Below, piece by piece: positions 32,411 to 63,703 of a DNA stretch of 64,000 bases (within the stretch, counting starts at the first letter, position 1; the number at the start of each line of letters is the position of its first letter). The DNA is taken from assembly GCA_051294905.1 (NCBI GenBank), contig CM119371.1, positions 30,382,001 to 30,446,000 of the forward strand, given 5' to 3'. Below the pieces are notes generated by a model. The model saw only the letters and a program-made list of their open reading frames with translations, made no database searches and was not told where the DNA came from. Both the position numbers and the translations under genes were made by a program. Origin of the DNA: Botryllus schlosseri. Its lineage: Eukaryota.

Positions 32411-32416
32411 TTTATT
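32411..32416 (-). terminator. Putative polyadenylation signal of the fusion gene
   Basis: AATAAA on the minus strand ~270 nt after the stop codon. Confidence 0.5.
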
Positions 32417-32681: not shown

Positions 32682-32913
32682 TCATCCACGGAACAGGTCA
32701 CTGCTCTCCGCCATGATAGCGGACACGCATTGGATGTAGGCGAATCTACCCAGGTCGCTGGCGAACTCATTCCAATCCTTGTTCGGCTCGGGAGTTTTGA
32801 TCTTCGGGGGAAGGTAGTAGGTGCAGGTTTGCGTTGTCTGACTGGTCGGCAAGTAAATGCCTGGACTTTCCGTGCGGAACGTGACAAAGTAGTCTCCGCT
32901 AGCTGGATCCAAG
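32682..32913 (-). CDS. Fusion gene exon 26 (terminal, TGA)
   Basis: ttttcag acceptor. Reads SLDPASGDYFVTFRTESPG...SSDLFRG*. Confidence 0.85.
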
Positions 32914-35900
32914 CTGAAAATAATCAAAAGTTGAAATAATGGGTAGTCCACAGTGGCAGGCTTGTACAAACTGCTGTATTTTCGAGCTGCGCAACCAGGG
33001 CTAGGGCTATTCACCATTCAAAACTCTCAAATAGATTGGAACTAACTATTTTCCACATGAACATCAGTACACATATGAAATGGGAAGGGGTTTCGACCCC
33101 CAAAACCAACCAAGGGTACACCAAATTTGGTAGTGATGACTGATAAGCTAGCAACTGCTGCAAGAACATCACACAACAGAGCAAGGGTATCACTGTAGAA
33201 ATTAAACATGGAACGGCTACGACCGATTTTGCAGCTTCGTTCCGCTTCGCCGAGGCTGGAATGGAGAATTGTTTTGCGTAAGGGACTGTAGGATTTCTGG
33301 CAATCCAAAAGCTATCCTCCCGAGCGCAGAAATTACTGAATCTGGTCTTGATCGAAAGCTACTGTTGCACCGATTCCAAAAATATAATTTAAAATATTGA
33401 TCAGGCTCTGATAGACCCAGAATCTGTCCTCCAAGTCTGAAATATCGGGATAGTTCATAACAATCGGGTAACCGCAACACAATGGCCATAACAATGACCC
33501 GCTGTGACTCTCCGATTGTTCGAACAATGCCAATATTTCAGACTTGTAGGACGGATTCTAAGTGGATCAGTGCCTGATCATTATTTTAATTTATATTTTC
33601 GGAATCGGTGCAACAGCAGCTTTCGATCAAGACCAGATTTAATAAGTTCTGAGCCCGGGAGATAGCTTTTGGATTGCCAGAAATCCTACAGTCGCTTACG
33701 CAAAACAATTCTCCACTCTAGCCTTGGCGAAGCGGAACGAAGCTGCAAAATCGGTCGTTGCCGTTCCATGTTTAATTTCTGTAGTATCACCATAGTGTCC
33801 TATATGCTGTGGACACAACCAAATCTCACGCCTCGGTGAAATTGGTCTACGGCGCACTTTATATATAGCTAAAGGCAATTTGACTGTACTTTTTGACCGG
33901 CTAGCCGAGCGTGAAATTTGATGAAACCAAACACCGTTAAAATGTAACATTCGAGGCTGATTTTGGGTGGTTCCGGGACCACGAGCAGACGGAAATTAAT
34001 ATTTTCGCAATCAGTATCGCGGTAGCTTTTGATTGATACCCGTTTCATCAAATTTCGCGCTCGGCAAGCCGGTCAAACATTACCGTCAAATTGGCTTTAG
34101 CCAAATGGAAAGTGTGACGTAGACCAATTTCACTGAGCCGTGAGATTTGCCTGCGTTCACACCATATAGGACACTATGGTATCACAATTCACGCCATACG
34201 ACGACACTCACCTCGCGTCAATAGCATCCGACAAAATCCCGCACTCCGGCACAGAAAAGCCCGACTCTCCTTTCACAGTAATTTTGACCGAGCTGTCCGG
34301 TTGAATCTTCGCCTTTTCTCCGTCACGCAGTGCGAAAGACACGTCGCTGACAACGTACGAACCGCCGCCAGGCCCGCGGCCTTGGAATCGGAGGTATAGC
34401 TTCTTGCCGTCTTCCGAAGGGACGCAGTAATCGTTATCGATTAGAACGCGGAAGGTGCCGACCAGTTCGCTCTGACTGCAAGTGTAAAGGGTCGTATATG
34501 AGACTTGTGTAAATTACTTGATTTTCGAAATGCGGAACCAGAACTAGAACTAGAACTATACTCATTTTTCAAAATATGCAACTAGGACTAGAACTACTCA
34601 AAAATCCAGGAGTTAGTTGACCGTTAACAAGCTAGATTATAGTTTGTACAAGTCTGTGGGAAATTCATTCGACCATACTTTGTTCTAACGGATAACCAGA
34701 GGTGGCCAAAGTCGTTACAATTGGAACTCGAGTAGAATTAGTGTTTCAGAGTAAGTAAAAAAGGTATATTCTTGGCCTAGTTTTGTCTAAAAGTCTGAAA
34801 ACTGCGAATAAGAAGTAGTGGTATGAAATAGCAGCTTCTTAAATATGCGGCCCAAGTCAGCAAAACATATTCGAGTACTTCGAAAAAGTATGAGCGCCTC
34901 TTTACTGACCGGCTTTGCGAATGACACTATTCAATGTACCATACATAGAGGTGCTCAGTAACGAAGTACACTGCAAGGCTGTCTTGCATACCTACACTAC
35001 TCGCTAAGTAGTTATATTTATACATCTACTTGTACTCCTTATCATTTTCTTCGGGAAATTTTACTTTCTTTTTGAATGAACTAGGATTGATTACTTGCAC
35101 AACGCCTTTCGCTTCCCACAAGATAGCGTAATGGTGGAGCGTCCGGCTTCTTGCTCGGGCGGTCGAGGGTTCGATCCTCGCCCAGGACAGACACTGGTAT
35201 CCATGGATTGTCCGCTTGGCGGCCAGCATTACCGGGACAGCATGGAGGGGTAGTGCAAGACATGTAAAGCCTTGCATGGCTATTCCTGTGCCTTCATAGT
35301 CCGCGGCATATGCAAATCATACACTGATGGCGTGCATATGCAGTATGCACAGATCGAGTGTATGTATATGATGAGTTGGTGTATATGCCGCAACAAACGT
35401 CAAGGAAAATAATATACTACGTCCTATTCTTGAGTAAGTTTTCGTTTATTTCGCACTACTTCCTCGAGTGGTTAGGTTTTTGACTACTCCCACTTCTACT
35501 TGGTATTTTGTAAAATAGGAGGTAGATTTGAGACATGCATAAATTGCTTACATAACTTTTACGAGTGAAATTGTCATGACAACTGGTCGAAAGAGCCAAT
35601 GTATCACAGTGACTGAATATGTATTCGAAAATCGCACCTATTTGTAGTGTCATGAGTTCTTTTGCGTTAGTCGCGAAGATACATCTTGCGATTTTGAAGC
35701 TATAGGCGCCGCCTAATCAGTGCTGATAACTCTGTTATTACGTGAGAAATTTTCTCCCAGTGTTGAGGTTTCAAAGTGGTCTGGCCTAACTTACATGTAC
35801 TCCGTGACTCCGCCAGGTGGGGCTCGCCTCAAGGTGCCGTCGTTGACACGGAGCTGGTCGAACGGAGACCAGATGTCCAGGGCCGCCACTGCAGGTGGTT

Positions 35901-38900
35901 CAGACACATCGTTCTCAATTATGAAAGTCTTGTAAGCTGCGTTGGTGATGTTGTCAAACGCAGACGGCACATCCATCTTGAAAAGGAAGTCAGATTTTAG
36001 CTGGATTTTACCAGAGGCAGCCTTGTAAGTGGGAGATACAAAATTTGCAGTAGGCTTATGTGGTAATGTAGTATAGAATATTTCCTCTTCATCACTTTAA
36101 GAATGAATTTAGTTATTGTTGTGACAACACAACAATTGTTCGAAATATCCCCTGTAACACTCCACGAGAAGGTTGCGCCTCTTTAAAGAGCCATCAGTCA
36201 TATTGTGTTAGTCACGAAATCCCATCTTACAATTTTAGAAGAAGCCATCACCGATCAAGTGCTAACAGTATGTGACCCGGGACCATATATACGTTTTGAA
36301 ACCAAGCATAGGCTACTTGAGTACGTTTCAGATCCTCATATTCTACATTCACTTGAATTAGTTTGAAATGCCTTCGAAAATTACGACGTTCCTTTCAATT
36401 CTATATTAGTATCAACGATTACGTTTTCACCTCAAGCTATTCCATATTCTCACAATAACTCCAAACGTAACTCACATACCTATATAGAACAATACCTTCC
36501 GACGAACGTAGTATTATTAACGGAAAACTTTAATCAGTGTCTCCCATACACATAACTGGATTAGACTGTCAAGTCGGAGATTAGAAAAATATATTGTCAG
36601 ACTTACGGGCTTGCCATTGTAGTACACCGGGTTGACGAAAGGATATCCCATGTGGCGGGAATCGGGGTAATCCTGTCCCTTGGCGCCACAGTAACTCATG
36701 CTCCCGCAGGACGTACGAATTCCAATACTGTCAATGTTGTTGTCGGTCGCCATGACGAACAAGACATATTCCTCTCCAGCCTGAAAAAAAACATCCGAAG
36801 TTGAAATACATAAACACGTTTACAATCCACCATTTGAAATGCTCATGCCACATAAGGCAGTGTGAAAAAACTGACAAAAATTTTGTTCATATTTTGTGAA
36901 ATCTACAATGGCGCAAAAAAATATTTCAATTACCTTGTGTTATTGACTAAATCAATAAAATTAAAAAGGCCTTCCTTGATATAAGCACTTTGCCGTGATT
37001 TTAATAACTAGGAATAATAAAATTGGAGCAACGAAATATACTTCCAGATTTTGACTATCACATGGGAAATATAGTAAGCCTGCTACTTCATTTCCTCTCC
37101 ATGGTTACCGATTTTAGTGAGGAAAGTAATCCATTTGCGAATTATATCGCTATCGGATTAACGAGGCTATCTCAATGAGGCTGACGAATTGTAAGTAATA
37201 TAATCATCGTTGTATGTTTGTCGTAAATATAAATCTCGAACGCAATGGGCACATAATCTCGTTACCCTAAAACACCGACTTTTGGTACGCGACTTAGCAT
37301 TCTAGTACGGGAATCGTGGTGCTCAGCATTACTGACGACACTTAACCAACTCGAGATTATAGCACATGTGGATTCGGATTCGGTTATGACAGCTGAGATT
37401 CAGAATTTTGATTGGCGATTTTACCTCAATGGTTTTTTTCGCCATTTGAGCGATCATTGTTCAAATATTCATGCACTAGATGACTGGATTCGTTGACAGA
37501 GTGAAATCTATGTCATCCTTGACGGGCCGTGGGTCTGTCAGTAGGAATTCTAATTTCATTGATACGTTGATGTGCGAGCATTTGTTATCCAGAGCGTTCC
37601 TTTGACGACGAGTGTACTTTCGACAATCTATTACGTGGTGTGATAGGTCATTGCCACACACGGATATTCGAAGAATCCGACAAACCTTATAGGTATACGG
37701 TCGACAAAATACCAAATAATCCTTTATTGTGACGTAGAACCGGCATTGTATGCATTATGGTAGCACAAAAGATACATATTTGAATTTACACATATTTTAT
37801 ACTGCTGTGACGTCATAATAATTGATACTCGACTAGACTCGTAGCCTAAAACCTGATTCATAAGAATCGAATCGCTAAGGTTCTCGATTTTGCTCATTGC
37901 TAGGCAGAACAATTGAACTCAAAGCAGATTACTAACAGTACCATGCCAATGATAGTCCTCACCTTTTTGCCTCTAGGCACCAACATGTTGTATGGCCATC
38001 CGCATTCGCAGAAGCCCGGGTTCTCTTTCACCATAGGCTTTTCCGAGTCAGGCCACTTGCCGGGTTCCATGTCTTCGTGAAGACGCTTGATCACGGAGGA
38101 GTGCACATCTGCGCGGGTCACTGTGAGATGATCCTTGCCGGCTGGTATTCTGACATGGACATGACGGTGGTAAGAGACGAAGCATGAAAGGGTCTTGCCG
38201 AAGTTGTAATGACTCAAGTCATGAGTCGACTCCGGTCGCGATTTTTCGGTGACTTGAGTTGGCTCAGGTCATTTTTCAAAATTACGGAAAATAGTCGACT
38301 TGATTCAATTTGTTTACTGTCTCGACTTGTACTCGAGTCATTGCGCATGGCTTTACCAAGTCAATTCACTCGAGAATCAAACGTTGAATACTGGCATTTC
38401 ATTGTAACTTCAAGGAATAGTAAAGTTACCGCATCGATATTTCGCCCGAAACTGGTAAGAGTGAGGAAAATTAATATACAGTATTATAGGTACGAGGCAT
38501 TCGATATCACCCAAGCAGAGCTGTAAAAAATTGAGTTGAACAACACTTGACCTCAAAACTGAATAGGGAACATGATGACTTTGGACTTGAGTCTCAATAC
38601 TATGACTCGGACTCGATCCCTTGCACGTGCACTCCGGCTCGGACTCGACTCGGTAGCGGATTGAAAATGACTCGACTTGACTCGAGACAAAACATTAAAA
38701 GTAAGATCATAATTTGGACTAGGGCATGGAATCTCTGAGAATAAACGATTTTCGTGCAATTTTTCAAAAAATCAGACATTACCAGTCATGGGCTAAAATT
38801 TACGCGAGGGAAATGAATTCCGGATGCCTAGATTTTAAGAAAATGAATTCAGTAAAATATTACTTCCGCCTAGCTCTACGACAAAAGAACGGCGCATACC

Positions 38901-41900
38901 CGCAAACAAACTTGTCCATTTCGATCCAACGGCGTCTGTCGTGCTGGACTCTTTTCGGGCAGATGAAAATCCGCATAGTAAGCTTGAGCTCCGTGTCTGA
39001 AATGCAAACAATTCAATCATAGCTGAGCAGTAACGAAATACTTCTACTTTTTGGGAGCAATCAAGTTGGTTTTGCGTTAAATGCTTTACTTACTTTAGTT
39101 GTTAGGTAAAACTACGTATTACTCTTGAATTTGAAAAATGCAAGGTTGTTTTGTGATAGTTTGTATCGCTTTATGGGTGAAATGCCCATTATAACCTTGT
39201 AAATGGCACCAGTATTACGGTAACTGAATATATTTTCGAAGATTGTACCTAATCGCAGTGCCGTTTGTGGTTTTGCGTTAGACGCGAAAATACAACCCCC
39301 AATTTCGAAAGCAACCAGCCCCGATTTACTGCTGAAGTATGCAGCCCTTGAACAAATTCTAATTTTTGAAACTACTTACTTGAGGATAGGATAGGACGAT
39401 GTATGTTTTCGACCTTGCTGTTTTTCTGGCATGAGCACTGACTCATGATTTACATACACAGGATTTGCGCGTATGCATACCATGAGTGCGTGATGTACAT
39501 GAGCAACTGGACAAGGAAGGTGCAGATGTAGCCTTGTACGATTTTCTAAGTCTTTTACCATCCCTCCATGCTATCCCAGTGATACGTTTTTTTTTCAGAC
39601 CATTTATTTTTTACTTGATGCAGTTTTGATATATTATAGATATCGATACTCGCACTGGAGTAGAAACTTACGACGTTGATTCTATATCTACATGAGAACA
39701 TACGAAAAAGTAATAAACTACCTCAACACTTATTTCAAGTAAAAGTTTAGGAGTCGTATTACTTGTTTGAGTACTTTTCATTACTCCCATGCCCTATTCC
39801 CATTTGAAGTACTTTGACGGTGTCTTGGAAATTGCTACCGGTACTTATAATTGAGTAGGAATGTACGGCGTGATGTCTACTTCTATATCAGTATTAACTC
39901 TTACTGATGAGTCTGACCACCTCTGTGACCATGAAGTAGGTTTGTAGGTTTACCTTATTTTGAGATCCGAAAAACTAGGATGCTTTCAAATATTTGTCAG
40001 CTATAACACCGGAGGAGAAAACGGGCGATTTAAAAATATTTTTCAGTAATAGTATTGGGTTGACTAAAAAATAGCATTTTTCTGATGTCGTTCCCTAAAT
40101 ACCCGTCGGGTGGTATTTCTCGTTTATTTTCTTGCCCACCCTGGCGTTCGGTGCGTGAAATTCCAGTTTGTGCTCGCATTCTAACAATTATTTTTCTAGA
40201 AAAAGAGGACAAATCCTTTTAAAACGGGACATGTTTTAGCCCTACCAAGTAGAGTAACTGGAAAGGCACTGGTTGCGTATTCCAAAGAAGTATTAGTATG
40301 CTAATTAACATAACCACTAAATTAAGAAGTGCCTTAAGAAAAGCCTAGTTGAGTTCTTGGGATATGAAGAAGTATACCTCAGTAATGACCACCTCTGTGT
40401 GTTTCCTACTGCTGCTAAAACAATATCACCCTCAAACATATGATGAAGAAATATAATAAAGATTTAACTTTGAATCTCCCAAATAAGTTCTGACCTCTCA
40501 TTTGTACTTCCACGTTAATAACTTTAGACATATCTTTACAATTGTTACTTCTAGTTCTATTTGAGTACTAGCGCTGAGTATGACTTTGACGACCACTTCC
40601 CGTAGGCGAGATCCAGTCAATACGAAACCAGATCAATACGACTCACTATTCGCAACTTCGGCGTTCCGTTTCATTCTCAAGTGGTAATAGAACCTTTGAT
40701 GAGACAGCTTGTTGTCCCATTCGTACTTCTTTCGTGCCGGCCCGAGATAGGTGCAGAGACGGGTGGTTTCGGACGGACCTTTGCTGGTCCACTGACCGTA
40801 AGATATCCTGGCGAACAGATAAAAAAAACACTGGACCATCTTGCTCAAAATCAATTGATCGTAATAAGAAAATCAAAGGAAACTTCTTTCTATTATGTTT
40901 AAGACCCCTGCGGTTACGATATGCACAACACAAAGCAATCTTATTGAAGATATGCGAGTTACACGGAAATCGTTTTCTTTACATTAACGACAGATTCGTA
41001 CAAACTACCAATCTAACTAGTTACCAGTCAAGAAACTACTGTTTTAAGAAGTTCTAATTACAGTTCTAGATGCGGATTTTGAAAGGTGAGTAATTTTAGT
41101 TTTAGATGTGGATTTTGAAAATTGGACAGTGTTAGTTTTAGCTGCGCATTGAAAAACACGAGACATCGTTTGGCATCAATCGTGATACTGGTGTTCTGCT
41201 GTGTTGCCATTGTTAGCTTAGAGTCATTACTACTAACAGTGGGGTAGCCAGGGGGTGGGTGTTGCGGGTCAACACCCCGTCCTTTTGAAATACCCTTCTA
41301 TTTCCGATATTTTCTCTCTCCATAGCAAATTCAGTGATTCGTATTATCAGTGCTGATAATGCTTCGGAATGGAGTCTAGTTATAGTTGTTTTAGTTGGTT
41401 AGTTGCGGATTTCTAAACTTCGTTAGTTCGAATTGAAAGTTTAGGCAAGTGAGTAGTTCTGGTTCCAGTTCTCGCCTTAAGCTAGATTCCATATCCTTCG
41501 AATATCGGTTGAATGTGTCAGGGTTATCGGCGAAGGTGCTAGAGTTATTGGATGTATCGCTATCGGCTCAAAAATCTGAAACCGGTCGGGCTTTATACTG
41601 ATCACTGACCACCTCTGCTGAGCAACCAGACTTCACACAACTCACTTTCCGAAATCCTTAGGCATTTGCTGCTCGCCGCTCAAGACAATATCATCAGCCG
41701 TGATGGTAACCGGTGGTCCGTCATGGCCTATTTCGCTACGGTAGCAATTGTTGTTCTTGATCCAAAGCGAGTCGATCTTTCGGTGCCAACGGTAAAAGAT
41801 GAGATCCCTTACCGCTGTGGCGGTGTCGTTCATATAGCTGGTTGCCTGATTAAAATAATGAGTAGTCTATTTAGTACTGTGCGATTTATGGAATGGTTTC

Positions 41901-53900: not shown

Positions 53901-56900
53901 CATTGGAATTCCATGCAAAAGTGTGACGTACCTTGGTGGGAGAGTGTCTCAGAATCATCAACTCCTGGTCGCTGAAAGTGTACGAGAAGTTTCGGTAAAA
54001 CGAGCCTGGCTCTTTACCGACGTCGTAGCGGTGCGCGTAGTTCATCCACGACAGTGAATCGGGAGCGCCTGTCACAAACTCAAATGTTATTTTGAAGGAA
54101 TGTAGCAAAAAAATCAAGTAACAATATATGGCCTATAGAAGTATTCCCAAACTAGCGTACTATACCTATCATATTTGTCCTCGTCTCATACCTATATATT
54201 CTTAGCGAGAAGAGTGTGCATTTACTGCCGAAAGGCGCTACAGCAAAACAGAATCCAGGGGGGATTCAGAAACCACCCCATTCTCGGGGTGTCGGTGGAA
54301 TATGTCACAAGATTTGTAAGCCAATGAACAGTATTTCCTTGTTTGTGCGTTTCAATTTAGAGCCAATTTGAGACAATCATCCTTATCAATCGGCATTTTT
54401 CTTTCTCTGTATGTATATATTCAAACGTTAGCTTGGTTCGTTTAGCTACTTTGCGGTAGACACTGTTCTGATTGATTCGTGTGTGAAGCATTGTTAGAAA
54501 TTCTACGTCCTGATATGCGGACATTCGTCCTTGCTCCGTTTGTGCTTATTGCAATTTGTCAGCATCATCCGGATTGAAAGTTGTGTTTGATTTAAACCTC
54601 GGTATAATTATGCGATGCGTTGTTTTCGTACACCACCTTTTGGGTGTGAAAACACACTTACTTCACAGCAGCCCTTCAGTAAGTGTGTACCCGCGAATAT
54701 AGCACGGCTTTCAAACTCAATAGAGAGGAAGGCACACTGTTCCAGCTTGATATCGAGGGCACGGGCTGCACAAATACAGCCCCGAGATCGGTGGAAGTCC
54801 CAACGATTTTCCGCGGAGGCAATATATTGGGTGGCGTAGCGGTATTGGAGTAGTTGGCTGTAGTAAGGCACCAAATTTTCGATTTAACTTACAAAAATTA
54901 ACTAGCCCTTGGTTTACGGTATACGAGGGAAATCGGGACGCATGTCATTATCGAGCTCTGTTGCGTATCAAAATAGTAGGGATGGTGTGAACCTCTGAAA
55001 GGTTCAGGTTCGTGTGAACGCGAACCTTTTTGAAATGTTCTGTGTGAACGCGAACGTGAACCTCATGACGTCACGTGACGTCATATTGCTAATTCCAACC
55101 CTACATTTCAGTGAAGTGATAGCCGATATTAAAGGGGCACTGCGCTCTAAAAATGATGTGGTCTCAAATTGAAGGTAAAAACGAACAAAAATTTTTGGCC
55201 GCAGCCATTTCCTTCAGAACGCCACCGTAATGGAGCTGCAATTTATTGAAATTTCTACAAGACCTGCTGCCGCGGCTGCTTAACCCGTTACATGGCACGA
55301 TGTCTTCATCGTCGCACTTGCTCGACGCGATTAGGCAGTCACGCAGAGAACGAATTTTAGATAGTTGTCAGCCGATGTTATGAAGGAAATGTGTCTAAGT
55401 TTCGTTCTCTGCGTGACTGCCTTATCGCGTCGAGCAAGTGCGACGATGAAGATATCGTGCCATGTAACGGGTTAAGCAGCCGCGGCAGCAGGTCTTGTAG
55501 AAATTTCAATAAATTGCAGCTCCATTACGGTGGCGTTCTGAAGGAAATGGCTGCGGCCAAAAATTTTTGTTCGTTTTTACCTTCAATTTGAGACCACATC
55601 ATTTTTAGAGCGCAGTGCCCCTTTAATGTGCACGATACCTAGCGACGCCTGAGGCCACATAAGGCCAGAATGCTGAAGTAGATGGTGACGTTTAAACGTC
55701 GCCAAATGTATCAACTGGAGCAAACAAATGATAATTAATCCCATAAAATTAATATCTTCCGTCGCTTTGACAACAATTTCGACGAGGACTTGCAAGGAAT
55801 ATAAGCTTACGCCTTAGCGGTCTCAGCCAGACCGGACAATGTATTCGGCATCTGAGTAGATTGCTATGGGCAGAGTGTACAACGGGTTTCTCTACTCGCT
55901 ACCGATATTACTCCGTTAACAAGTTATACAGCAGTAACCCACACCCCAATCGCACGGATTTGGTTTTTATGATACAATAAGCACATGAAATCAAGATTAA
56001 CCCCGTTCGCCGGCTAGATTTTTTACATCAGACAACGCTATCAATCTCATTGATTGGTTGAATAAGCATCATTCTCTGAATACCTTCATGTAGTGTATTT
56101 CGCTCTTGATGTAGTGTAATTGCGAATCAATCTCAACTTTTGTAACAAAGCAAGTACAATTTTTGATATTGTCAAGGTGCATGATCGTTTAGTGTTGATT
56201 TTTTACGCTGCCAGCGTCATGCATATAGTTGCCCGCAGTTTGAATGCAATAGATTTCATCCAGAGATGTTATAACGAAGTGAAAATTGTAATTTCTGAAA
56301 AAGGTTCACAGGCAGAACCAACCAAGGTTCTTTTGTGAACGTGAACCTCTAAATTTCTGAGGTTCACACACAGAACGCGAACGTGAACCTCGCGTTCACA
56401 CCATCCCTACAAAATAGTCTACTTTTCCCTGAAAAAAATTAGTTAAGTCTTGGAAACTACTACTTATTGTGGATTGGTAATATATGACACTACTTATTAT
56501 TGAACTGAATTATAGCTGCAGCTACCATGACTACATCAGCGTAATATGTGATTTAACTACAAAAATGGCTGTTAATATCGTCCCAATTCTACAACCACAT
56601 ACCAACTTCGAATGGGTGTTTCAGTCCCAGGCAGTGGCCACACTCGTGCACGAGATAATGCAGCAGACGGCGATGTGCCTCGGCCCTTCTCTTCGGACAA
56701 GACGCCTCCAGTCCTTTGAATGATCTGTGCCTAGAATATAACGATATTCAATAATGTATCTGGAATGAACATAGGGCTTTCTATTCCCATAAAACATTGA
56801 TCTTGCCAATGATCCGTTAGATCAATACTAATCCTTTATTTAATCTTGTTTATATTGCTGTTGTTTGTATATTCTCTAAACTGTTATAGTAGTTCTTGAA

Positions 56901-59900
56901 ATGAAAACAGCAACATTAGGTTGATTAGTTCCGTGTGATCCAGACTATATGCAATTATGCATATTCACCCACACATTATTAACAATCAAACTACACGGAC
57001 TGAAAATATTTCACTTTGAATTGACTCGAAATTGGAAAACATCAGAACACTTGATTTAGACTTGCGTCAAATTTGCGCGACTTGACGCATGACTTGACTT
57101 GAAAATTTTTAAAATGTATTGGCTGGACTCGAGTCAAAATATGCAGCGACTAGAAATGATTTGTGACTCCAAGGCAGTGACTTGATCCCTACACTGAATC
57201 GAGTCAACTTCAAAATTTGAGTGGCTTGACTGAAGACTTGGCAAGAAACAATTTCAAATGAATCGTTTTGTCGCGAGTAAAAATACGCAGTGACTAGAAA
57301 TGACTTGTGGCTTGAAGTTAGTGACTTAACCCTGACATCGGGTTCAACCTCAGTTTAAACGCAAGTTCCAGCTCAAAGAACGTTTCTGATGGTTGACACG
57401 TGCGGCTGTTGTCGGAAAGACTTTGCACAGTACTCACTTCGTGAACAGCCCAAATCCATGTTTGCCTCTCTTGTCAAACGAGAACCCCATGAACCTCTTG
57501 TCGGGTGGCACAGTGCCCAGCATGCACCAGATGTTCTCATCGGCACTCTCCGACTCGTCAAAGTAAGCCATCATCACCTCATACAGATCGGCCTTCGTCC
57601 ACGGATCGTGAGGGGTCGGATCGTCAACCTGAAAACGAATAGCGCTTCTTTATCAGCTGTTCTCATCTTCAACCGAAGTTGGAAAACTAGAAAATTTACA
57701 GGTTTTCAAAATTAGATTCTAAGTAGAATTGTAGCCACGCAGTGTCTACAAACTAGATTAGAATTAGAATTGCCGAATCAAAAATAGTCAACCGACTCAC
57801 AATTACAGCCTATCGCATAATGCTTGAAAAAATTCAACCCCATACTGAGGTATATCTCACTGCGCCCGTGGAAATGTCTCCGTGGACTTCGGAGAGATAC
57901 ACAGTTTAGAAATACGCCCCTTATACTCATAAGTGCCTGAAATGTTGACTTTTATGGAGAGCATACCTTTTCACAGTCGTTCTCGTTGAAAATCAGCTTC
58001 AAGCCGGCATCTTCAAAAGCAGAAAACGGATCGAGCTTCCTATCACGCAAAACGCGCGGGGTGTCGCGAAGATCTTTCAAGCTGATGGTGGGCCAGATGA
58101 ACTTATCGGTGTAGTCAATGTCCAACTTGACCTCCTTGAAGAACTGAAAAGGATGCATTACAACTTGATCAATCGGCATCTAGTCGATCTGCAATATTCC
58201 TTAGCCCATTTTCAATTCAGTAATTCCTATTATCATTTATAACAGCGGTTAACAACCGGGGGAAATTCCCCCCTTGGGGATAATTTTGGAATTTTTAGGG
58301 GGAATCTGGCTTTAGGGTTGCATCGGAAGATACATTGGGTTCACAAGGCTTTTAAATTTTTATGGTAGAACTGTTAAGCATGGAACTAGTGCCATAGTAG
58401 TTCTTTACAATTGTATGTTTCTTAGTTGGATTTTAAGCTAGGTAGATGCCTTCCGTAAATATTACACGCCCTGATAAAGTGAGGCCCGCGAGACGATTTC
58501 GTTGGGCCCGTGACAGCCTCTCGACCAAATTACTACTAAGCAGGAAAAAGTCAAGCCGAATTTTGCACAAGTCCGCTGGTAAAAACGTCTACCTTAAAAG
58601 CCAACACATGAGCAAACGTGAAACACATACCAAATTAATCGATTCAGCTCAAGGCCATGGTAAGCGGACTTGGTGATTTATTTTTCGTCAGCGGCTACCC
58701 GACCGGCAAAAACAAGTCAAATCGAGCTGTACCGTACTAAAGTGTAGTGCATGCGGTCCGCACTCGACAAAGTTCTGACGTATCTGAATATGTTTGGCCA
58801 TACATTGCTCAGTCAACAAATGGTTGCGCGTTAAAAACACCTTTTTTTAGCCACAGACAGCTTTTTCATAGGGTGGAATTTTAACTCAAATATTGGCCAA
58901 GGGGTCCACGAGACGAAAAAGGTTGGGAACCAGTTATTTATTAGTTCGTTGTGTTTTAGTTGGTTATTGTTGCGGAGTTTTAAAGGTCGTCAGTTGTACT
59001 TCTCGTTTTATAGTTGTAGCTTTTGAAAAGTGAGCAGTTTTCGTTCTAGTTTTAGTTGCACATTTTGACAATCCAGTAGTTTTTACAATACTGACACTAA
59101 CACACGCATACCTTTCCAGTTCTTTCCAGATCGTAAGACACTTTCTGTTGACCTTTGATCATGATGTCAAGTTTTGCCGTCCATTTCGTCCCAGCGTTCT
59201 GGCGTAGCGCGAGATTGATCTTGCCGCCGACACGCGAGCCTGTGCTGAAAACGGCCTTGATCCCGGCCGTCACCGTGTACGTATCGGGTTCGCCTCTGGT
59301 CACTTTCAGGGTCATCGGCATGATTTTGAAATACATCGACGCTGGCCTGCGTGACAAGTGCTATCATCGACAAGAATGATTTAGACTTAGTGAGATTAGG
59401 CACACTCAGAAAGCTTTCGTAACAATTATTTCACCACATACTTTTGTGTCCGAGCGAAAATGAAAGGCTGGCCTATATTTTTTTGATATATAGGCATTGG
59501 GGCTGTTCACAAAAGCCAGGGATATATAGAACTCTATATATCCCTGACAAAAGCTTTCATATTCCTACTACATTGTTGCGACAAAAGACACTTCCAGGTA
59601 TTGGCTTTCACTTGTTGAATACATTTTCTTATATTTTACCCGCTTGTCAGTGTAGGCTATTTCCTCTTCGAGGTTGCCAATTACAGTGTGGAAAGAATCT
59701 CAATTGAGAACTATATCACCATCGTTTGTAAAGGGCTATTTTATGAAAAATACTGCCTTCCAGCTGGTCAGCGTCGTGATTTCTTCTATTGTATGCAATT
59801 TCTTTATCTAAACCAGTGGTTCCCAACGCGGTCGATATTGTCCTCCAGCGGGCGATTTTTAGAAACAAGGGGGCGAAAATACCGAAGGGGCGATTGGGGG

Positions 59901-62900
59901 GAGGGAAGTGTTTGAGCTTCCAGTGATATATATTTAATTACCACGGCCAAAGTGCACGTGCAGACGGCTTATTCACGTGAACACAACGGGAAGCAGACGC
60001 GGAAACTGGTTTACCGAGCACCTACACTAGGAAAATTACTTTCTTGGGCCAATTCACCAGCCATTAGAGTTAGGTGAATCAATTTCCGTTTATACGTCCT
60101 CTTATTCGGATCCCTAATTATGGGGGAGGGGCGAAGATTTGTGTCGAGCATGGTAAGGGGCGACGAGCCGAAAATGGTTGGGAACCACTAATCTGAACGC
60201 TACCACAGGCGCATTTCCGGATGCAAATGCGTGAGAGGGGCATGCCCATTCATTCAGGCACACCTTCAACACGGTGTTTAGTCGTGGTGAAGTGACGAAA
60301 TTTGTCATCGTAAATACTATTATATCCAGACGCGGGCGGAATGTAAATTGTGATCAAAGTGACAAATGTCATGCTTCAAGTGTTACCTAATTTCTACAGT
60401 TTTGGATAGAAGCCTCGTATTCTTACCATGAATACGGGCCACTACTCCTTCTGCTGACTGTGCCGCTAACCATATCCAACGACTTGGTGTATTTGCCGGT
60501 TTTGTCAATGTCGACTATAAGCTGAATGTCTGCGGTGCGGTCCATGCCTTCGTAACACCCACTGCACGGATTTGCCACCGCTGTAACAAAGTAGAACACA
60601 TAAGCGCATGTTATCGACTTATCTCACGATGTGTGCTTGAAATACGTTAGTATGATGCAAGCATCCGTGCAAAATGGATGTGGAATACAGATGGCATGCT
60701 AGAAACGACCCTGCTCCTGCCGCCGTATGGCCATATTTCTCTATAGGCATTAGGCATATGAGTAGTCGACATGTTGTGATTATACAGGTATAAAGAGGCA
60801 GTTTTGCTAGTTTTGATTACCTGTCTTGTTGCTCAACGCAGAATGAAGATTACTGTGATGTTTAGTAGGCTACCCTACGCGTACCGGAGAAGTACATGTT
60901 GTGTATTTTAGGCCTGGATCTAATACACGAAGGTCACTTATTCTCTGTAACGTGATTATTCCTTTTATTTGGTAATAGAATTGGACTTTCGACTTTAAAA
61001 ATGTTTGGATTTTGATGGAGTTGGACTGAATTGAAAATGTCAGGACTGGATCAGGACTGAAAAATATCACAGTCCGCTCATCACTGCTGCTCACCACAAA
61101 GTAAAATGACAGATTTTCCTCAGACTCAAGTAAACAGATATTTACTGCTCTAAAGTGTCTTTAAATGATTGCCTTAAGCCTCCACCTCTGTATTTTAACA
61201 TGCCTGTTCATCGTTTTTGGGTGACCACAACTCACGTGCACTGATTGACTTCTTTTACGGATTCTGGATTGGAAACGTATGACATAACAATTTAAACACG
61301 GACCGAGTAATTCGTAATGTAACAATGACGACAAACAAGTTCAAAACATTTGGAAACCGTTACTTTTTACTTCAATTGTTACGAGGTACTTTGCTATATT
61401 TGCATAATTTTCAATCGAGATTATACGCACTATACGCGAGGCTACGTAATCACAGTATTAGCGCACAACAGTGTAGGCCTACACACGAGAACAACCAGCC
61501 ATAAACAACATGTTCAACGCATTTCCGGTTCAGTTTAGACAGCCTATATGGTTTTAGTTCAAACATTAGTAGTTTTTATGTTCCAAACTCCAGGCTAATT
61601 TTCGCGGGCCAGTCAGAATCGCGTCGCGAGCCGCACTTTGCCCAGGTCTGCTGTAGACCATTACCGAATTCTATTGATAGGTCTCGTAATGACCGTTAAG
61701 AATCTATTAGTGTGCAGCCTGCCGCCCGCGAATTTAGTTGGTGTGAAAAGTTTGAGACAAGCTGAGTGCGCTTAACAAAAGGCACAAACACACACTATAA
61801 TTGGCATATATGGATTTTGATGTTGAATAATTTCTTCAATGCTATGTTCGCGGGATTTGTGTACCTTAAAACCACAAATGTTTATCGAATTTTAGTGATA
61901 AGTCACGCCATCGCCGTTACTAATTGTGATCGTGGGTCCTGCAACTATTATACATTCAACGCGAATCCCGCGGTTTCAAGGCATGTTTTCATATCTGACT
62001 CACTTTTCAAAACGGTTGCACATCATTGCCGTAAATGATTTTAGAAATGTGGGTGTCACAACAAATGCAACAAATTCAGACATCATACATGCAGATATAA
62101 CAACAACCAACTTGAAGACCTGTTTCATCTTAGCTTATTGTGGACAAAAGGTGTCAGCGTAAAATAAATAATCTGTCTTTAATCGTGATGGCAACGCCAA
62201 ATCTGCGATGAGGCATCAAATTACATATTCAATCCTTCCGTCTATTTATCACTGCGTCAGCAGGGAGCGTACCACAGAGGCCATGTATTGTATACCATTA
62301 CCTCTGACTCTTGTCACCTGATACAGAACCAACTAACAAGTGCTATTCTCGAAGTCATATTCAATCAATTGGTCAAATTATCTTCAGTGTAACTTTCAAG
62401 TCGAACGCCAAATCCATTTCAAAACCACCAATACCTAGGATACCGCTTGTGTTGGGTTAAAGGGACATGATATTCGCGATTCCAACCCACAAAAATGAAA
62501 CGCTGCGATATCCAATGATGAATCAGGAGTCGACTCGCGAAGTAATTTGTGTCTGTTCACAAGTTTTGATCCATACCAAGTGCAAAGTTAGAGAGAAACC
62601 GAAACAAGATTCCCGTGCTTCACCACTCCACTAACCTAGTGGAACTTGTGTCCGGCGCGTAGGAGCGACTGATGTCCGTGCAATTTCTGACACATCACCA
62701 GAGCCCGAGTCTTCGATCCCAATACAAGCATTTAATATTAAAACCAAAATGAATCGGTTACCCCTGCAACTATTTCCACATTATCTACCATCACACTTTA
62801 CTCCAGGGGCGGGCAACTGCTCTAGTCGGCGAGCCGGATATAGGAAAATTAAGTAATTGGTAGGCCGGATTGCTGAATCGATAACATTATTCGCCCATTT

Positions 62901-63703
62901 ATCCACATATACAAGGAATAAATCGTGTTTAATGAATGTATTTTAATGACAGCAATGTCACTTCAAAGCCATTTCAAGCCGATAATTACGGACATAATTT
63001 GGATTTTGGATCAACATTGTCATACAGGCGCCGCCATGTCTGCTATTCTCTGATCAATTCACACACGGTGCAATCCTTGATTAAGATTTCAAGGCGTTTG
63101 ATAAACCCGGAACCCCAAATTTCCCAAGATATCAATTCATAGGGTTGAGTACATCGTAAATGCCGATAATGCAAGTTTCCTCGCTTCGACGAACTTACGC
63201 GTAAGCTCCACTATTACACGCTGTGCACACGTATATGATAACATACCGCTGGGCATATGTCCTCCTTTAAGAGGATTTGTCATCTTTTATAACTTTTTTG
63301 AAAGTGTCCTTGGAGGACGCCCAAATGTCCTCTTATTTGAGAATTTTGGTTAGATATAGGGCCAAATTAGACTGAAACACAATAAGTCAGCACTGTAGTA
63401 ACGCTCTGGCGGCTATTTCGGGAACTGGACCGGAAAGTAGACTTTTTTTATTTTTATTCAACCACCTGATGATATGAAAAACTGTATTTTTGAGAATTGA
63501 CCGAGAAAGTGACATTCAGCGGCTAAAATTTAACGTTCAAGGAAGTAGTGGGGAATCTCGGCAGAAGACGGGAAACTGTCCGATGACAGGAAAAAATCCC
63601 GCGGGCCGCATATGTTGCCCGTCCCTGCTTTACTCCGTTTACATAGTCACTTACCGTCATCCTTGTAGCGCTTCAGTGGTGGTGGGGTTTCTCGGTGTGA
63701 CAT
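32682..63703 (-). CDS. Multi-exon gene (26 exons, ~1548 aa): metzincin metalloprotease / arthropod-type prophenoloxidase (hemocyanin N-M-C) / C-terminal beta-domain fusion protein
   Basis: Manual model, complement(join(32682..32913,34212..34475,35795..35976,36607..36780,37963..38149,38900..38996,40647..40807,41646..41845,42033..42171,42488..42678,43653..43833,45073..45207,45410..45622,46221..46341,46517..46706,47503..47873,50070..50271,51420..51548,52977..53183,53932..54068,56603..56730,57438..57628,57967..58143,59112..59346,60427..60580,63655..63703)) = 4647 nt. All introns are GT-AG, phases match at every junction and there is no internal stop. Motifs: HECGHCLGLKH, SWMNY, NYHHRHWH, RQGELFGYMHSQMLARY, HNQGH, TAVRDLIFYRWH, CECGWP. 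Confidence 0.85.
33193..33784. mobile_element. Palindromic (foldback) MITE
   Basis: Arms of ~280 bp are near-perfect inverted repeats (tagaaattaaacatggaacggc... / ...gccgttccatgtttaatttct). Confidence 0.85.
33790..34179. mobile_element. Semi-palindromic MITE (other copies ~7940-8217, ~4500-4660)
   Basis: TIRs ccatagtgtcctatatg / catataggacactatgg. Confidence 0.8.
34212..34475 (-). CDS. Fusion gene exon 25: extra C-terminal beta-rich domain
   Basis: ttgcag acceptor, gtgagt donor. Reads QSELVGTFRVLIDND...KLYLRFQGRGPGGGSYVVSDVSFALRDG...ILSDAIDA; phase 2->2. Confidence 0.85.
35111..35415 (+). mobile_element. tRNA-derived SINE, second family
   Basis: A box TAGCGTAATGG (35124), B box GGTTCGATCC (35168), followed by non-tRNA body; antisense remnant near 39400-39580. 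Confidence 0.6.
35795..35976 (-). CDS. Fusion gene exon 24 (end of PO module, start of extra domain)
   Basis: Reads MDVPSAFDNITNAAYKTFIIENDVSEPP...GVTEY, gtaagt donor. The acceptor is ambiguous: in-frame exon starts are possible at 35976, 36000 or 36021. Confidence 0.8.
36607..36780 (-). CDS. Fusion gene exon 23
   Basis: ttttcag acceptor, gtaagt donor. Reads AGEEYVLFVMATD...SYCGAKGQDYPDSRHMGYPF, a typical PPO C-terminal motif. Confidence 0.92.
37963..38149 (-). CDS. Fusion gene exon 22: CxCGWP motif
   Basis: gtcag acceptor, gtgagg donor. Reads IPAGKDHLTVTRADVHSSV...FCECGWPYNMLVPRGKK. Confidence 0.92.
38900..38996 (-). CDS. Fusion gene exon 21: Hemocyanin_C-like
   Basis: tttcag acceptor, gtatgc donor. 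Reads TELKLTMRIFICPKRVQHDRRRWIEMDKFVC, matching the PPO pattern RIFxxPK...IELDKF. Confidence 0.9.
40647..40807 (-). CDS. Fusion gene exon 20: Hemocyanin_C-like
   Basis: cgccag acceptor, gtgagt donor. Reads ISYGQW...RLCTYL...KLSHQRFYYHLRMKR. Confidence 0.88.
41646..41845 (-). CDS. Fusion gene exon 19: CuB third His
   Basis: aatcag acceptor, gtgagt donor. Reads ATSYMNDTATAVRDLIFYRWHRKIDSLW. Confidence 0.93.
41959..41989 (-). ncRNA. Minimal hammerhead ribozyme motif in intron 18
   Basis: Minus strand reads cc-CTGACGA-gtgtctgcc-GAAA-atgt-TC-ggg. Confidence 0.55.
42033..42171 (-). CDS. Fusion gene exon 18: CuB site (HNQGH)
   Basis: tttcag acceptor, gtacaa donor. Reads AEPDEEMVPNIAGHILEPSTGKYQAVYGSFHNQGHGVF. 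Confidence 0.92.
42488..42678 (-). CDS. Fusion gene exon 17
   Basis: ttccag acceptor, gtatgt donor. Reads PWEFGERSMTFNAGY...YQRALDSGFVEHEQP. Confidence 0.9.
43653..43833 (-). CDS. Fusion gene exon 16: CuA site
   Basis: cccag acceptor, gtgagc donor. Reads RHWHIVY...KRQGELFGYMHSQMLARYDAERESWGLDPVK. Confidence 0.93.
45073..45207 (-). CDS. Fusion gene exon 15: start of CuA site
   Basis: ttcag acceptor, gtaagc donor. Reads YPEPEDRDP...EDWMNYWRCDADFNYHH. Confidence 0.92.
45410..45622 (-). CDS. Fusion gene exon 14: Hemocyanin_N-like domain
   Basis: ggcag acceptor, gtacgt donor. Reads RPFSNFDIDQIQKASKIVEML...WALEAFIVH, resembling the FSLF...ALxVAxxH region of arthropod PPO. Confidence 0.88.
46221..46341 (-). 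CDS. Fusion gene exon 13 (linker into phenoloxidase module)
   Basis: ttttcag acceptor, gtactg donor. Reads PKVEDKYTSANLQKRVNSVLTWSPVTDGDGEDDLSGVRLG; phase 1->2. Confidence 0.82.
46517..46706 (-). CDS. Fusion gene exon 12 (end of protease module, TPR-like helices)
   Basis: ttctcag acceptor, gtaagt donor. Reads GTKSDNMDYGNLVLARGKLYLAEK...KNWNKLKNP; phase 0->1, no stop. Confidence 0.85.
47216..47494 (+). mobile_element. tRNA-derived SINE, same family as 29804-30072
   Basis: gggtggcgagatagcgtagt...gggttcgag...taggctcctc...ctggtgtaaatga, with a (CAA)n-like tail. Confidence 0.75.
47503..47873 (-). CDS. Fusion gene exon 11 (helical region with basic stretch)
   Basis: Phase-1 acceptor ctcag at 47874-47875, gtaagg donor. 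Reads VLKLPIWISLDPS...KKRTRGGRR...DIIEYYQKQ. The 5' boundary is less certain than the others. Confidence 0.75.
49601..49632 (-). ncRNA. Minimal type I hammerhead ribozyme motif (inverted copy)
   Basis: Exact reverse complement of 49662-49693. Confidence 0.65.
49662..49693 (+). ncRNA. Minimal type I hammerhead ribozyme motif
   Basis: ccc-CTGACGA-gtgtcagcc-GAAA-atat-TC-ggg: conserved core, ccc/ggg stem I, palindromic AATATT stem III. Confidence 0.65.
50070..50271 (-). CDS. Fusion gene exon 10
   Basis: ttttag acceptor, gtaagt donor. Reads AVDPFVRPIYSGYS...DVPGTYKVRAVYNGGRYNVTS; phase 0->1. Confidence 0.88.
50953..51324. mobile_element. MITE
   Basis: TIRs tagggttgcatttaaaa / ttttaaatgccacccta. 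Confidence 0.65.
51420..51548 (-). CDS. Fusion gene exon 9 (beta-sandwich-like region)
   Basis: ttttcag acceptor, gtttat donor. Reads GQLLSFEARVKNVGKLPALVEGDLSVESGNLQVYITKPDGSTK. Confidence 0.85.
52137..52961. mobile_element. Decayed hAT (Charlie/Buster-like) element with transposase C-terminal remnant
   Basis: cagtggttctcaacc left end. Minus-strand SYPNVSSEALRVVITFATTYICGIAFSAL (~52420-52520) resembles the ZBED5/FAM200-type pattern YPxxxxxALxxLxPFxTTYLCExxFS. Confidence 0.6.
52977..53183 (-). CDS. Fusion gene exon 8 (acidic linker)
   Basis: ttccag acceptor, gtgatg donor. Reads VFRAACSEDLL...ADDDDDYDMEAGY...LPEKYQK; phase 0->0. Confidence 0.85.
53932..54068 (-). CDS. Fusion gene exon 7: Met-turn
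   Basis: gacag acceptor, gtacgt donor. Reads GAPDSLSWMNYAHRYDV...FSDQELMILRHSPTK. Confidence 0.9.
54977..56409. mobile_element. hAT-type non-autonomous element
   Basis: TIRs tagggatggtgtgaac / gttcacaccatcccta; perfect 8-bp TSD caaaatag; gtgaac subterminal repeats. Confidence 0.85.
55129..55626. mobile_element. Near-perfect palindromic TTAA-flanked MITE (Kolobok/T2-like) nested in the hAT element
   Basis: ttaaaggggcactgcgctctaaaa... / ...ttttagagcgcagtgcccctttaa; ~235-bp arms with few mismatches. Confidence 0.85.
56603..56730 (-). CDS. Fusion gene exon 6: metzincin zinc-binding motif
   Basis: ttctag acceptor, gtatgt donor. Reads HRSFKGLEASCPKRRAEAHRRLLHYLVHECGHCLGLKHPFEV, containing HExxHxxGxxH. 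This frame is missed by the ORF track. Confidence 0.92.
57438..57628 (-). CDS. Fusion gene exon 5
   Basis: ttttcag acceptor, gtgagt donor. Reads VDDPTPHDPWTKADLYEVMMAYF...FSFDKRGKHGFGLFT; phase 0->2. Confidence 0.88.
57967..58143 (-). CDS. Fusion gene exon 4 (start of protease catalytic region)
   Basis: ttttcag acceptor, gtatgc donor. Reads FFKEVKLDIDYTD...AFEDAGLKLIFNENDCEK. Confidence 0.88.
59112..59346 (-). CDS. Fusion gene exon 3
   Basis: cgcag acceptor, gtatgc donor. Reads PASMYFKIMPMTLKV...YDLERTGK; phase 2->0. Confidence 0.85.
60427..60580 (-). CDS. Fusion gene exon 2 (N-terminal region of protease module)
   Basis: ttacag acceptor, gtaaga donor. Reads VANPCSGCYEGMDRTADIQLIVDIDKTGKYTKSLDMVSGTVSRR; phase 1->2. 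Confidence 0.85.
63655..63703 (-). CDS. Fusion gene exon 1 (start codon; MSHRETPPPLKRYKDD)
   Basis: ATG at 63703 lies ~40 nt downstream of a TATA box. Strong G|GTAAGT donor; its phase 1 matches exon 2. No hydrophobic signal peptide. Confidence 0.7.

Follow-up and report, generated by a model that had tools for sequence, protein, structure and literature searches.

A 64,000-nucleotide stretch of the Botryllus schlosseri genome (contig CM119371.1, positions 30,382,001 to 30,446,000 of the forward strand; hereafter the window, meaning this whole stretch) carries on its minus strand a gene of 27 exons, between positions 63703 and 32682, that encodes a 1542-amino-acid (aa) protein consisting of a zinc protease module followed by a phenoloxidase (PO) of the arthropod type. 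The base composition of the window is eukaryotic and AT-rich, with a GC content of 0.36–0.45. An initial annotation, made from the nucleotide sequence, had proposed that a single gene and a single reading frame join a metzincin-type module to an arthropod-type PO, and this proposal was upheld by spliced RNA, by the conservation of the linking exons and by orthologues in other ascidians. We regard it as nearly certain that the two modules belong to one fused gene and one protein.

Gene model and spliced transcripts

An oxidase exon (45412–45621), used as a query in a large protein library, retrieved P0001, a B. schlosseri phenoloxidase record of 758 aa, and P0002, a Styela clava model of 1546 aa. 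Alignment of P0002 to the window by tblastn yielded 25 collinear pieces extending from 60584 to 32706, and the gene model was completed by a search for GT-AG junctions, a search for the first exon and assembly. In the final model all 26 introns are GT-AG and the frame is open throughout, from an ATG at 63703 to a stop codon that ends at 32682. Hydropathy analysis of the 1542-aa protein revealed neither a signal peptide nor a membrane helix, and the N-terminus is hydrophilic. The peptide across the exon 1/2 junction, TPPPLKRYKDD/AVANPCSG, matches GPPPSKRFRDTAIVNPCSG of Styela. The initial annotation had described 26 exons spliced in a single GT-AG frame of ~1548 aa; the single frame stands, whereas the count does not, as a micro-exon had been missed and an acceptor at 47873 had been taken in place of that at 47796. 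The acceptor at 47873 keeps the frame open, has the joint best junction score and gives exactly 1548 aa, and is most likely the choice behind that length; the RNA contigs use 47796 instead. The features of the gene are as follows.

63655–63703, minus strand: exon 1, aa 1–17; best ATG/donor pair, donor ACG/GTAAGT, no hydrophobic stretch
60427–60580, minus strand: exon 2, start of an N-terminal beta-barrel-like domain; Styela tblastn and junction search
59112–59346, minus strand: exon 3, N-terminal beta domain; Styela tblastn and junction search
57967–58143, minus strand: exon 4, end of the beta domain and start of the catalytic domain; tblastn and junction search
57438–57628, minus strand: exon 5, catalytic domain, 72% identical to Styela; tblastn and junction search
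56603–56730, minus strand: exon 6, zinc motif HECGHCLGLKH (aa 297–307, 56648–56616); tblastn and motif mapping
53932–54068, minus strand: exon 7, Met-turn SWMNY (aa 318–322, 54051–54037); tblastn, junction search and motif mapping
52977–53183, minus strand: exon 8, end of the catalytic domain and an acidic disordered stretch; tblastn, RNA contig pieces 52976–53181
51420–51548, minus strand: exon 9, Ig-like beta-sandwich; tblastn, RNA joints to exons 8 and 10
50070–50271, minus strand: exon 10, beta-sandwich, apparently the last exon of the protease proper; tblastn, contig starts here
48579–48637, minus strand: exon 11, acidic 59-nucleotide (nt) micro-exon, aa 537–556; RNA joints, AG/GT flanks and match to Styela 556–575
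47503–47796, minus strand: exon 12, start of a TPR-like helical region and a basic stretch of low conservation; tblastn and RNA
46517–46706, minus strand: exon 13, helical region; tblastn, junction search and RNA
46221–46341, minus strand: exon 14, last helix, acidic loop and SGVRLG (aa 752–757); junction search and RNA
45410–45622, minus strand: exon 15, opening with the placeholder-type motif PFSNF (aa 760–763, 45618–45607); junction search and RNA
45073–45207, minus strand: exon 16, ending with the first CuA histidines; tblastn and RNA
43653–43833, minus strand: exon 17, CuA site (HWH, YMHSQ); Hemocyanin_M at 34.6 bits, and RNA
42488–42678, minus strand: exon 18, copper domain; tblastn and junction search
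42033–42171, minus strand: exon 19, CuB site (GHILE, HNQGH); tblastn, junction search and motif mapping
41646–41845, minus strand: exon 20, third CuB histidine (YRWHRK); Pfam, tblastn and motif mapping
40647–40807, minus strand: exon 21; tblastn and junction search
38900–38996, minus strand: exon 22, start of Hemocyanin_C; tblastn and junction search
37963–38149, minus strand: exon 23, Hemocyanin_C; Pfam, tblastn and junction search
36607–36780, minus strand: exon 24, Hemocyanin_C; Pfam (26.7 bits) and tblastn
35795–35976, minus strand: exon 25, start of a C-terminal extra domain; tblastn, CBM-like fold (carbohydrate-binding module, CBM) in the Glandiceps model
34212–34475, minus strand: exon 26, C-terminal extra domain; tblastn, CBM-like fold in the Glandiceps model
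32682–32913, minus strand: exon 27, coding part, with the stop codon ending at 32682; tblastn and junction search
32411–32416, minus strand: candidate poly(A) signal AATAAA, 266 nt after the stop, a motif no commoner in the window than expected by chance

Two contig runs from different studies (X1 and X9) and two raw-read runs (X17 and X18) were aligned to positions 43600–54200. A single X1 contig (record 1, 1428 nt) carries exon 10, the micro-exon and exons 12–17, with pieces at 50270–50070, 47796–47502, 46705–46517, 45621–45407, 45204–45073 and 43833–43653; further joints mark the 59-nt exon at 48637–48579 and the exon at 46341–46220. Record 5 of X9 starts at exon 10 and bridges the micro-exon and exon 12, and the joints from 50070 to 48637 and from 48579 to 47796 are present in both runs; it was the RNA contigs alone that revealed the micro-exon. 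The ends of all skipped stretches read CT..AC on the plus strand, and hence GT..AG in the sense of the gene. The three junctions between the modules that the initial annotation had named (47503/46706, 46517/46341 and 46221/45622) were reproduced by the junction search, and all of them occur in the spliced contigs: two appear as the joints 46341–46517 and 45621–46220 (the latter with the cut displaced by +1), and for the remaining one, positions 47502–47796 at 264–558 of X1 record 1 adjoin positions 46517–46705 at 559–747. Contig depths on the two modules were similar, at 17.1 and 21.4 in X1 and at 10.9, 9.0 and 16.8 in X9. Between the contigs and the window there are 1–16 differing letters per exon, whereas the paralogue described below is much more divergent, indicating that the contigs derive from the window gene. 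A search of the genome revealed no intronless copy; the 27 oxidase and 23 protease matches all run exon by exon at intron-bearing loci. X17 and X18 were uninformative, with a depth of 0 on all exon bins and reads only on intronic repeats.

Two points weigh against this gene model. None of the runs is recorded as RNA, so that the RNA status of X1 and X9 is a guess, although a probable one because their contigs lack introns while the assembly has no intronless copy. In addition, the junctions of exons 1–8 and 17–27 were placed by homology alone.

Two other readings of the linking region were rejected. The apparent membrane helix that follows exon 12 (LFVDVVVIAVVV...) is intronic and lies beyond the GTAAGG donor at 47503. 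As for MESQP at 47724, considered as a start of the oxidase, Styela has VVSKP at this place, the upstream residues are conserved and the RNA contig continues upstream. Outside the exons, the intronic stretches 44308–44661, 47140–47493, 49264–49971, 51034–51387 and 52096–53157 showed very high contig depth together with raw reads in all four runs and are probably dispersed repeats or transposon pieces. Intron 6 contains a near-perfect inverted repeat (55164–55591) in which one peptide of ~67 aa can be read from either strand. In window positions 1–32400, none of the 75 open reading frames (ORFs) of at least 75 aa matched Pfam, and nothing recognisable was found beside the gene on this side.

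The oxidase and protease modules

Pfam searches of the minus-strand ORFs between 43865 and 36520 detected the Hemocyanin_M and Hemocyanin_C domains. Hemocyanin_M scored 34.6 bits (cutoff 20.8) on the ORF at 43638–43865 and 78.6 bits on P0002, and Hemocyanin_C scored 26.7 bits (cutoff 26.4) on the ORF at 36520–36819 and 90.7 bits on P0002, while Hemocyanin_N gave no match at E ≤ 1. The copper-site motifs HHRHWH, YMHSQ, GHILE, HNQGH and YRWHRK are present and are conserved in 18 aligned oxidases; the six histidines that we take to be the ligands were chosen with arthropod structures in mind. The FSxF motif is at least 90% conserved in 70 hemocyanin-like sequences from tunicates, hemichordates and bacteria, and a weak collinear HMMER alignment sets it on FSLF of Manduca prophenoloxidase 2 (PPO2). 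In Limulus hemocyanin and insect PPO, the active site is blocked by a placeholder residue, to which the second Phe of this motif presumably corresponds.

The best PDB sequence matches of the oxidase were arthropod hemocyanins and PPOs (E 5e-45 to 2e-42). The predicted structure of the 962-aa orthologue from Glandiceps, which has a predicted local distance difference test score (pLDDT) of 83.5, aligned with Limulus hemocyanin with a Z of 38.1 over 528 residues (model 144–762 to chain 2–628) and with Manduca PPO with a Z of 36.6. The hemocyanin fold begins ~40 residues before FSxF in this model, and exon 14 is predicted to form the structural start of hemocyanin domain I, with a first helix followed by an acidic loop. 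The Pfam M and C domains, the copper motifs and the fold of the Glandiceps orthologue agree with the initial description of a complete hemocyanin/PPO-type copper protein; by sequence and predicted fold, the C-terminal module is a complete member of the arthropod-type hemocyanin/PO superfamily (type-3 copper, beta subclass), with M and C domains and a predicted N domain. The ~185–220 residues that follow Hemocyanin_C (exons 25–27, 32682–35976) matched no Pfam family. The final ~185 residues of the Glandiceps model resemble the CBM-like domains of carbohydrate esterases (7toj, Z 16.5), a similarity that hints at polysaccharide binding by the end domain. The Botryllus oxidase scored 218–257 bits against bacterial hemocyanin-like proteins named 'tyrosinase family' (P0178–P0288) and 148–157 bits against arthropod PPO and hemocyanin PDB chains, two ranges that come from different databases and from comparisons made without a tree.

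The N-terminal ~740 aa consist of a beta-barrel-like domain, a zinc catalytic domain, an Ig-like sandwich and TPR-like helices. HECGHCLGLKH and SWMNY confirmed the HExxHxxGxxH motif and the Met-turn of the protease module described in the initial annotation. The ORF that carries the zinc motif (56592–56747) gave only sub-threshold Pfam matches, to DUF4953 and to Peptidase_M10, the latter at 19.1 bits against a cutoff of 24 (16.4 bits on P0002), and the Reprolysin models remained below cutoff on relatives of the module; of the Pfam families considered (M10, M12B/reprolysin, M66 and DUF4953), none reached its curated cutoff. None of 14 proteins was at or near a family cutoff in NCBIfam, where one archaemetzincin match scored 16.3 bits against a cutoff of 145. 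A PDB sequence search found no relative of the module, and the ESM Atlas clusters of the family are labelled only 'hypothetical protein'. An HMMER search of 1.84 billion representatives uncovered 443 relatives at E ≤ 0.001, mostly stand-alone proteins of 650–750 aa, of which the best are hemichordate proteins and the remainder look bacterial; a genome scan with an 11-sequence alignment confirmed 109 bacterial loci, and the 80 that were kept span many phyla. A signal peptide is not evident in most family members. Across 70 aligned members, conservation reaches at least 90% both in the zinc motif His-Glu-x-x-His-x5-His and at the Met of SWMNY, and the His-Glu-His-His set and the Met-turn are kept in all aligned ascidian and hemichordate sequences and in both Botryllus paralogues. 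At the position of the motif Gly, which is Gly in metzincins, the window protein has Gly and the wider family mostly Asn.

The structure predicted for the Styela module (pLDDT 84.9; predicted template modelling score 0.87) shows, in order, the beta-barrel-like domain, an alpha/beta catalytic domain, a disordered acidic stretch, the Ig-like sandwich and the TPR-like helices. In a fold search of 48,161 chains, the catalytic domain matched ADAM-8 (Z 8.9, root-mean-square deviation 3.7, 166 aligned), adamalysin (Z 8.7, 167 aligned), ADAM17 (Z 8.5) and archaemetzincin (Z 8.3, 167 of 180), Z values of ~8–9 being only moderately above background. The likeness to the adamalysin/ADAM and archaemetzincin proteins thus lies in the HExxHxxGxxH motif, the downstream Met and Z values of 8.3–8.9 over 162–167 residues, whereas the family differs from them in its flanking domains and its consensus Asn in place of Gly, and reaches no curated family. 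A Foldseek search with the whole 775-residue model retrieved the Amuc_1438 and OgpA glycopeptidases at E 4e-6 but with a TM of only 0.15–0.27, and these candidates were set aside. The N-terminal module belongs, over its full length, to an uncharacterised family of metzincin fold that is found mostly in bacteria, and it is probably competent for catalysis.

Distribution of the fused architecture

The window protein is 59.6% identical overall to the 1546-aa Styela protein, with similar values for the protease (60.1%), the helical exons (58.7%) and the oxidase (62.6%). Fused models are also found in Ciona intestinalis (1501 aa), Phallusia mammillata (1502 aa) and Clavelina lepadiformis (1530 aa), and further fused clusters are P0006, P0153, P0161, P0164 and P0175. 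A search of other tunicates, which the initial annotation had suggested, revealed the same architecture in four named ascidians, and its statement that tunicate PO-like proteins stand alone is not supported, given these models of 1501–1546 aa.

A second locus in the Botryllus genome, ~190 kb from the window (G000:C1:30620271–30659251, plus strand; L009, L010 and L001–L007), contains protease, linking and oxidase exons collinear with those of the window gene. Its oxidase is 72–96% identical by exon to the Botryllus record P0001, with most exons at 91–96%. The start Met of the 758-aa P0001 corresponds to a codon that is split across the exon 14/15 junction of this locus, so that its mRNA must extend upstream of that Met; the published stand-alone Botryllus PO begins inside a fused frame. 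Between the window gene and this paralogue, the protease exons show nonsynonymous and synonymous differences (pN/pS) of 0.284/0.778, which demonstrates constraint but gives no exact ratio because the synonymous sites are saturated. A third match (L008, G000:C1:30803907–30804143, plus strand) covers only the C-terminus of the oxidase, at 82% identity and with one TGA inside, and may be a gene fragment or pseudogene.

In the hemichordate Glandiceps, the two parts are in separate models, P0005 (514 aa) covering Styela 24–557 and P0172 (962 aa) covering 621–1543, which are reported on contigs of equal size. The protease model of Saccoglossus ends in the acidic loop directly before the oxidase. The fusion is shared by other ascidians and, likely, by acorn worms, and because the hemichordate models cover both parts the arrangement looks older than the split between tunicates and hemichordates. 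The fusion is real, expressed and old, and is not unique to the Botryllus genome.

The ascidian POs described as standing alone (Ciona CinPO-1/2 and the haemocyanin-like proteins of Botryllus and Polyandrocarpa) belong to the same gene family as the window gene. The papers on their cloning are among those cited in the available portions of two articles (PMC5465252, PMC9395347). Their records are ~750–800 aa long, whereas genome, RNA and orthologues add ~750 N-terminal residues that include the protease. The initial annotation knew of no described protease–PO fusion, and full-text literature searches, which did not cover the original cloning papers and supplements, likewise yielded no description of one, while the architecture is present, uncommented, in public predicted proteomes. 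The word peptidase is absent from the accessible part of a survey on the architectures of type-3 copper proteins (PMC3658974), and a 2022 paper, in its accessible part, treats arthropod-like ascidian phenol oxidases as known stand-alone sequences (PMC9395347). The lack of a domain model for the protease family explains why the architecture escaped notice.

Proposed self-activation and its alternatives

The best overall explanation of the fusion, to which we assign a probability of roughly 0.35–0.4, is that the metzincin module activates its own oxidase. The protein would be made as a latent pro-enzyme. Its tethered metalloprotease, working either in cis or across subunits, would then cut the acidic SG-x-x-LG loop immediately upstream of the placeholder Phe and so release an active oxidase of ~88 kDa. 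The loop between the modules is flexible and conserved and lies at the position of the activation site of arthropod PPOs. Arthropod proPO shares with the Botryllus protein the oxidase fold, Hemocyanin_M and Hemocyanin_C, the FSxF motif and the lack of a signal peptide by hydropathy, and latency would be expected here as well. In the arthropod system the activator is a cascade of clip-domain serine proteases, whereas the candidate activator in Botryllus is a zinc protease of metzincin fold on the same polypeptide; the Botryllus protein also differs in having no conserved Arg-Phe site, no Hemocyanin_N match and an additional CBM-like C-terminal domain. The latent tyrosinases of plants, fungi and bacteria follow the same logic, with a placeholder residue that blocks the dicopper site until a protease unmasks it by removing a shielding domain, but they are shielded from the C-terminal side and their gene is separate from that of any protease, unlike the Botryllus fusion. 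They form another tyrosinase subclass, according to the accessible part of the survey (PMC3658974).

Indirect backing for a link between protease and oxidase comes from bacteria. At 12 of the 80 bacterial loci (L013, L015, L017, L021, L023, L039–L043, L046 and L047), all from Acidobacteriota, the family gene directly adjoins a classical tyrosinase with PPO1_DWL and DUF7868, lying either upstream and co-directional or downstream and convergent. When the gene neighbours of 12 bacterial loci were examined, their 73 ORFs proved heterogeneous, and the tyrosinase in L017 aside, they shared no partner. Moreover, a metagenomic protein of 1234 aa (P0200) carries Peptidase_S8 at 221–538 followed by Hemocyanin_M and Hemocyanin_C, and is an independent protease-then-oxidase fusion with the same N-to-C order.

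Several observations count against self-activation. A nearby tyrosinase is lacking at 68 of the 80 bacterial loci, and the 12 positive loci represent few independent events because all are in one phylum; a bacterial operon of the protease family with a hemocyanin-like oxidase, also considered, was found at only 1 of 80 loci and with a weak match. The residue before PFSNF is Arg in the window protein, Met in Styela, and Met, Gln, Ala, Thr or others in the orthologues, and because this Arg is not conserved there is no arthropod-like Arg-Phe site; in the window protein itself, Arg-Pro precedes FSNF in place of a conserved Arg-Phe activation bond. A review reports the view that serine proteases activate ascidian PO (PMC5465252). 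A zymogen that cuts itself needs a control of latency, and none was identified. Cleavage by the module is what we infer from sequence and models.

Two alternatives accept the fusion and assign the protease another role. It is possible, with a somewhat lower probability than self-activation, that the oxidase is not a target of the protease fused to it and that the two enzymes are co-delivered from blood cells, the protease cutting other proteins, such as those of the tunic, clot or microbes, or precursors of Tyr/DOPA-rich peptides that would then be cross-linked by the oxidase. The catalytic motif is conserved and under constraint, the CBM-like domain suggests that the protein docks on a polysaccharide matrix and that both enzymes could operate there, and the 68 bacterial members that do not lie beside an oxidase imply that the family need not be a dedicated activator; DOPA-containing peptides and tunichromes are named as PO substrates in the accessible part of one article (PMC5465252). 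Co-delivery is less easily reconciled with a fusion point right at the loop before the placeholder motif, or with the recurrence of the protease-then-oxidase order in the unrelated bacterial S8 fusion. Slightly less probably still, the protease-like module serves as a pro-region or scaffold, for latency or for the formation of oligomers, and is removed by other proteases, namely serine proteases. Such a role fits the literature view of serine-protease activation noted above, as well as the long and flexible stretches between the modules: the micro-exon and exon 12 are only 38.5% identical to Styela, and pLDDT falls below 50 at Styela 407–425 and 762–775, stretches that proteases from outside could reach. 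It would be surprising, however, for a mere pro-region to keep an intact His-Glu-His-His set and Met-turn in all aligned ascidian and hemichordate sequences and in both paralogues, or to evolve as slowly as the oxidase.

A further alternative takes the fused frame to be mostly a by-product, with the oxidase made from its own start by an internal promoter or trans-splicing around exons 12–15, the protease made from a shorter transcript and the bridging RNA a minor read-through. In its favour, the public Botryllus record (758 aa) has its start at the exon 15 motif, the same exon opens two Ciona savignyi models, and in-frame ATGs occur in exons 12 and 13 (aa 581, 597, 626 and 661). In X9, depth is 16.8 for the oxidase contig and 9.0 for the bridging one, a difference that would accommodate additional transcripts of the oxidase alone and to that extent weighs against the fusion. 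This alternative is nonetheless very improbable. Bridging contigs were found in two studies at depths near those of both modules, and the linking exons have been kept as coding sequence in hemichordates and ascidians alike. The window gene has no Met at the exon 14/15 junction, where the codon is AGG, and, as the initial annotation had stated for 46341–46221 (its exon 13, here exon 14), no in-frame ATG occurs in that exon; in the paralogue, the split Met codon places the mRNA upstream. Finally, the genome has 23 matches to the protease module, every one of them within the two fused loci.

Self-activation by the tethered metzincin remains a good hypothesis, built on inference only. A broader scenario, which we consider doubtful, would give the protease family an ancient and dedicated role in activating latent type-3 copper oxidases, the family being encoded beside its tyrosinase in some Acidobacteria and fused to a hemocyanin-type oxidase in the deuterostome ancestor. 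Ascidians and hemichordates would then use a single self-processing polypeptide for melanisation and cytotoxicity in place of an arthropod-like serine-protease cascade, with the CBM-like domain aiming it at polysaccharide surfaces, for example the cellulose tunic or microbial walls.

PO is central to cytotoxicity, allorejection and tunic repair in tunicates. The present findings change the working gene model of the ascidian enzyme, in that the commonly used sequences of ~750 aa appear to be the C-terminal half of a protein of ~1500 aa. They also provide a first functional context for a protease family whose 443 cluster representatives (E ≤ 0.001) are annotated only as hypothetical. The fusion, seemingly older than the tunicate–hemichordate split, bears on the entry and evolution of the hemocyanin superfamily in deuterostomes. 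The architecture hints that the enzyme carries its own activator; for the invertebrates most closely related to vertebrates, this offers a concrete and testable alternative to the serine-protease route assumed so far.

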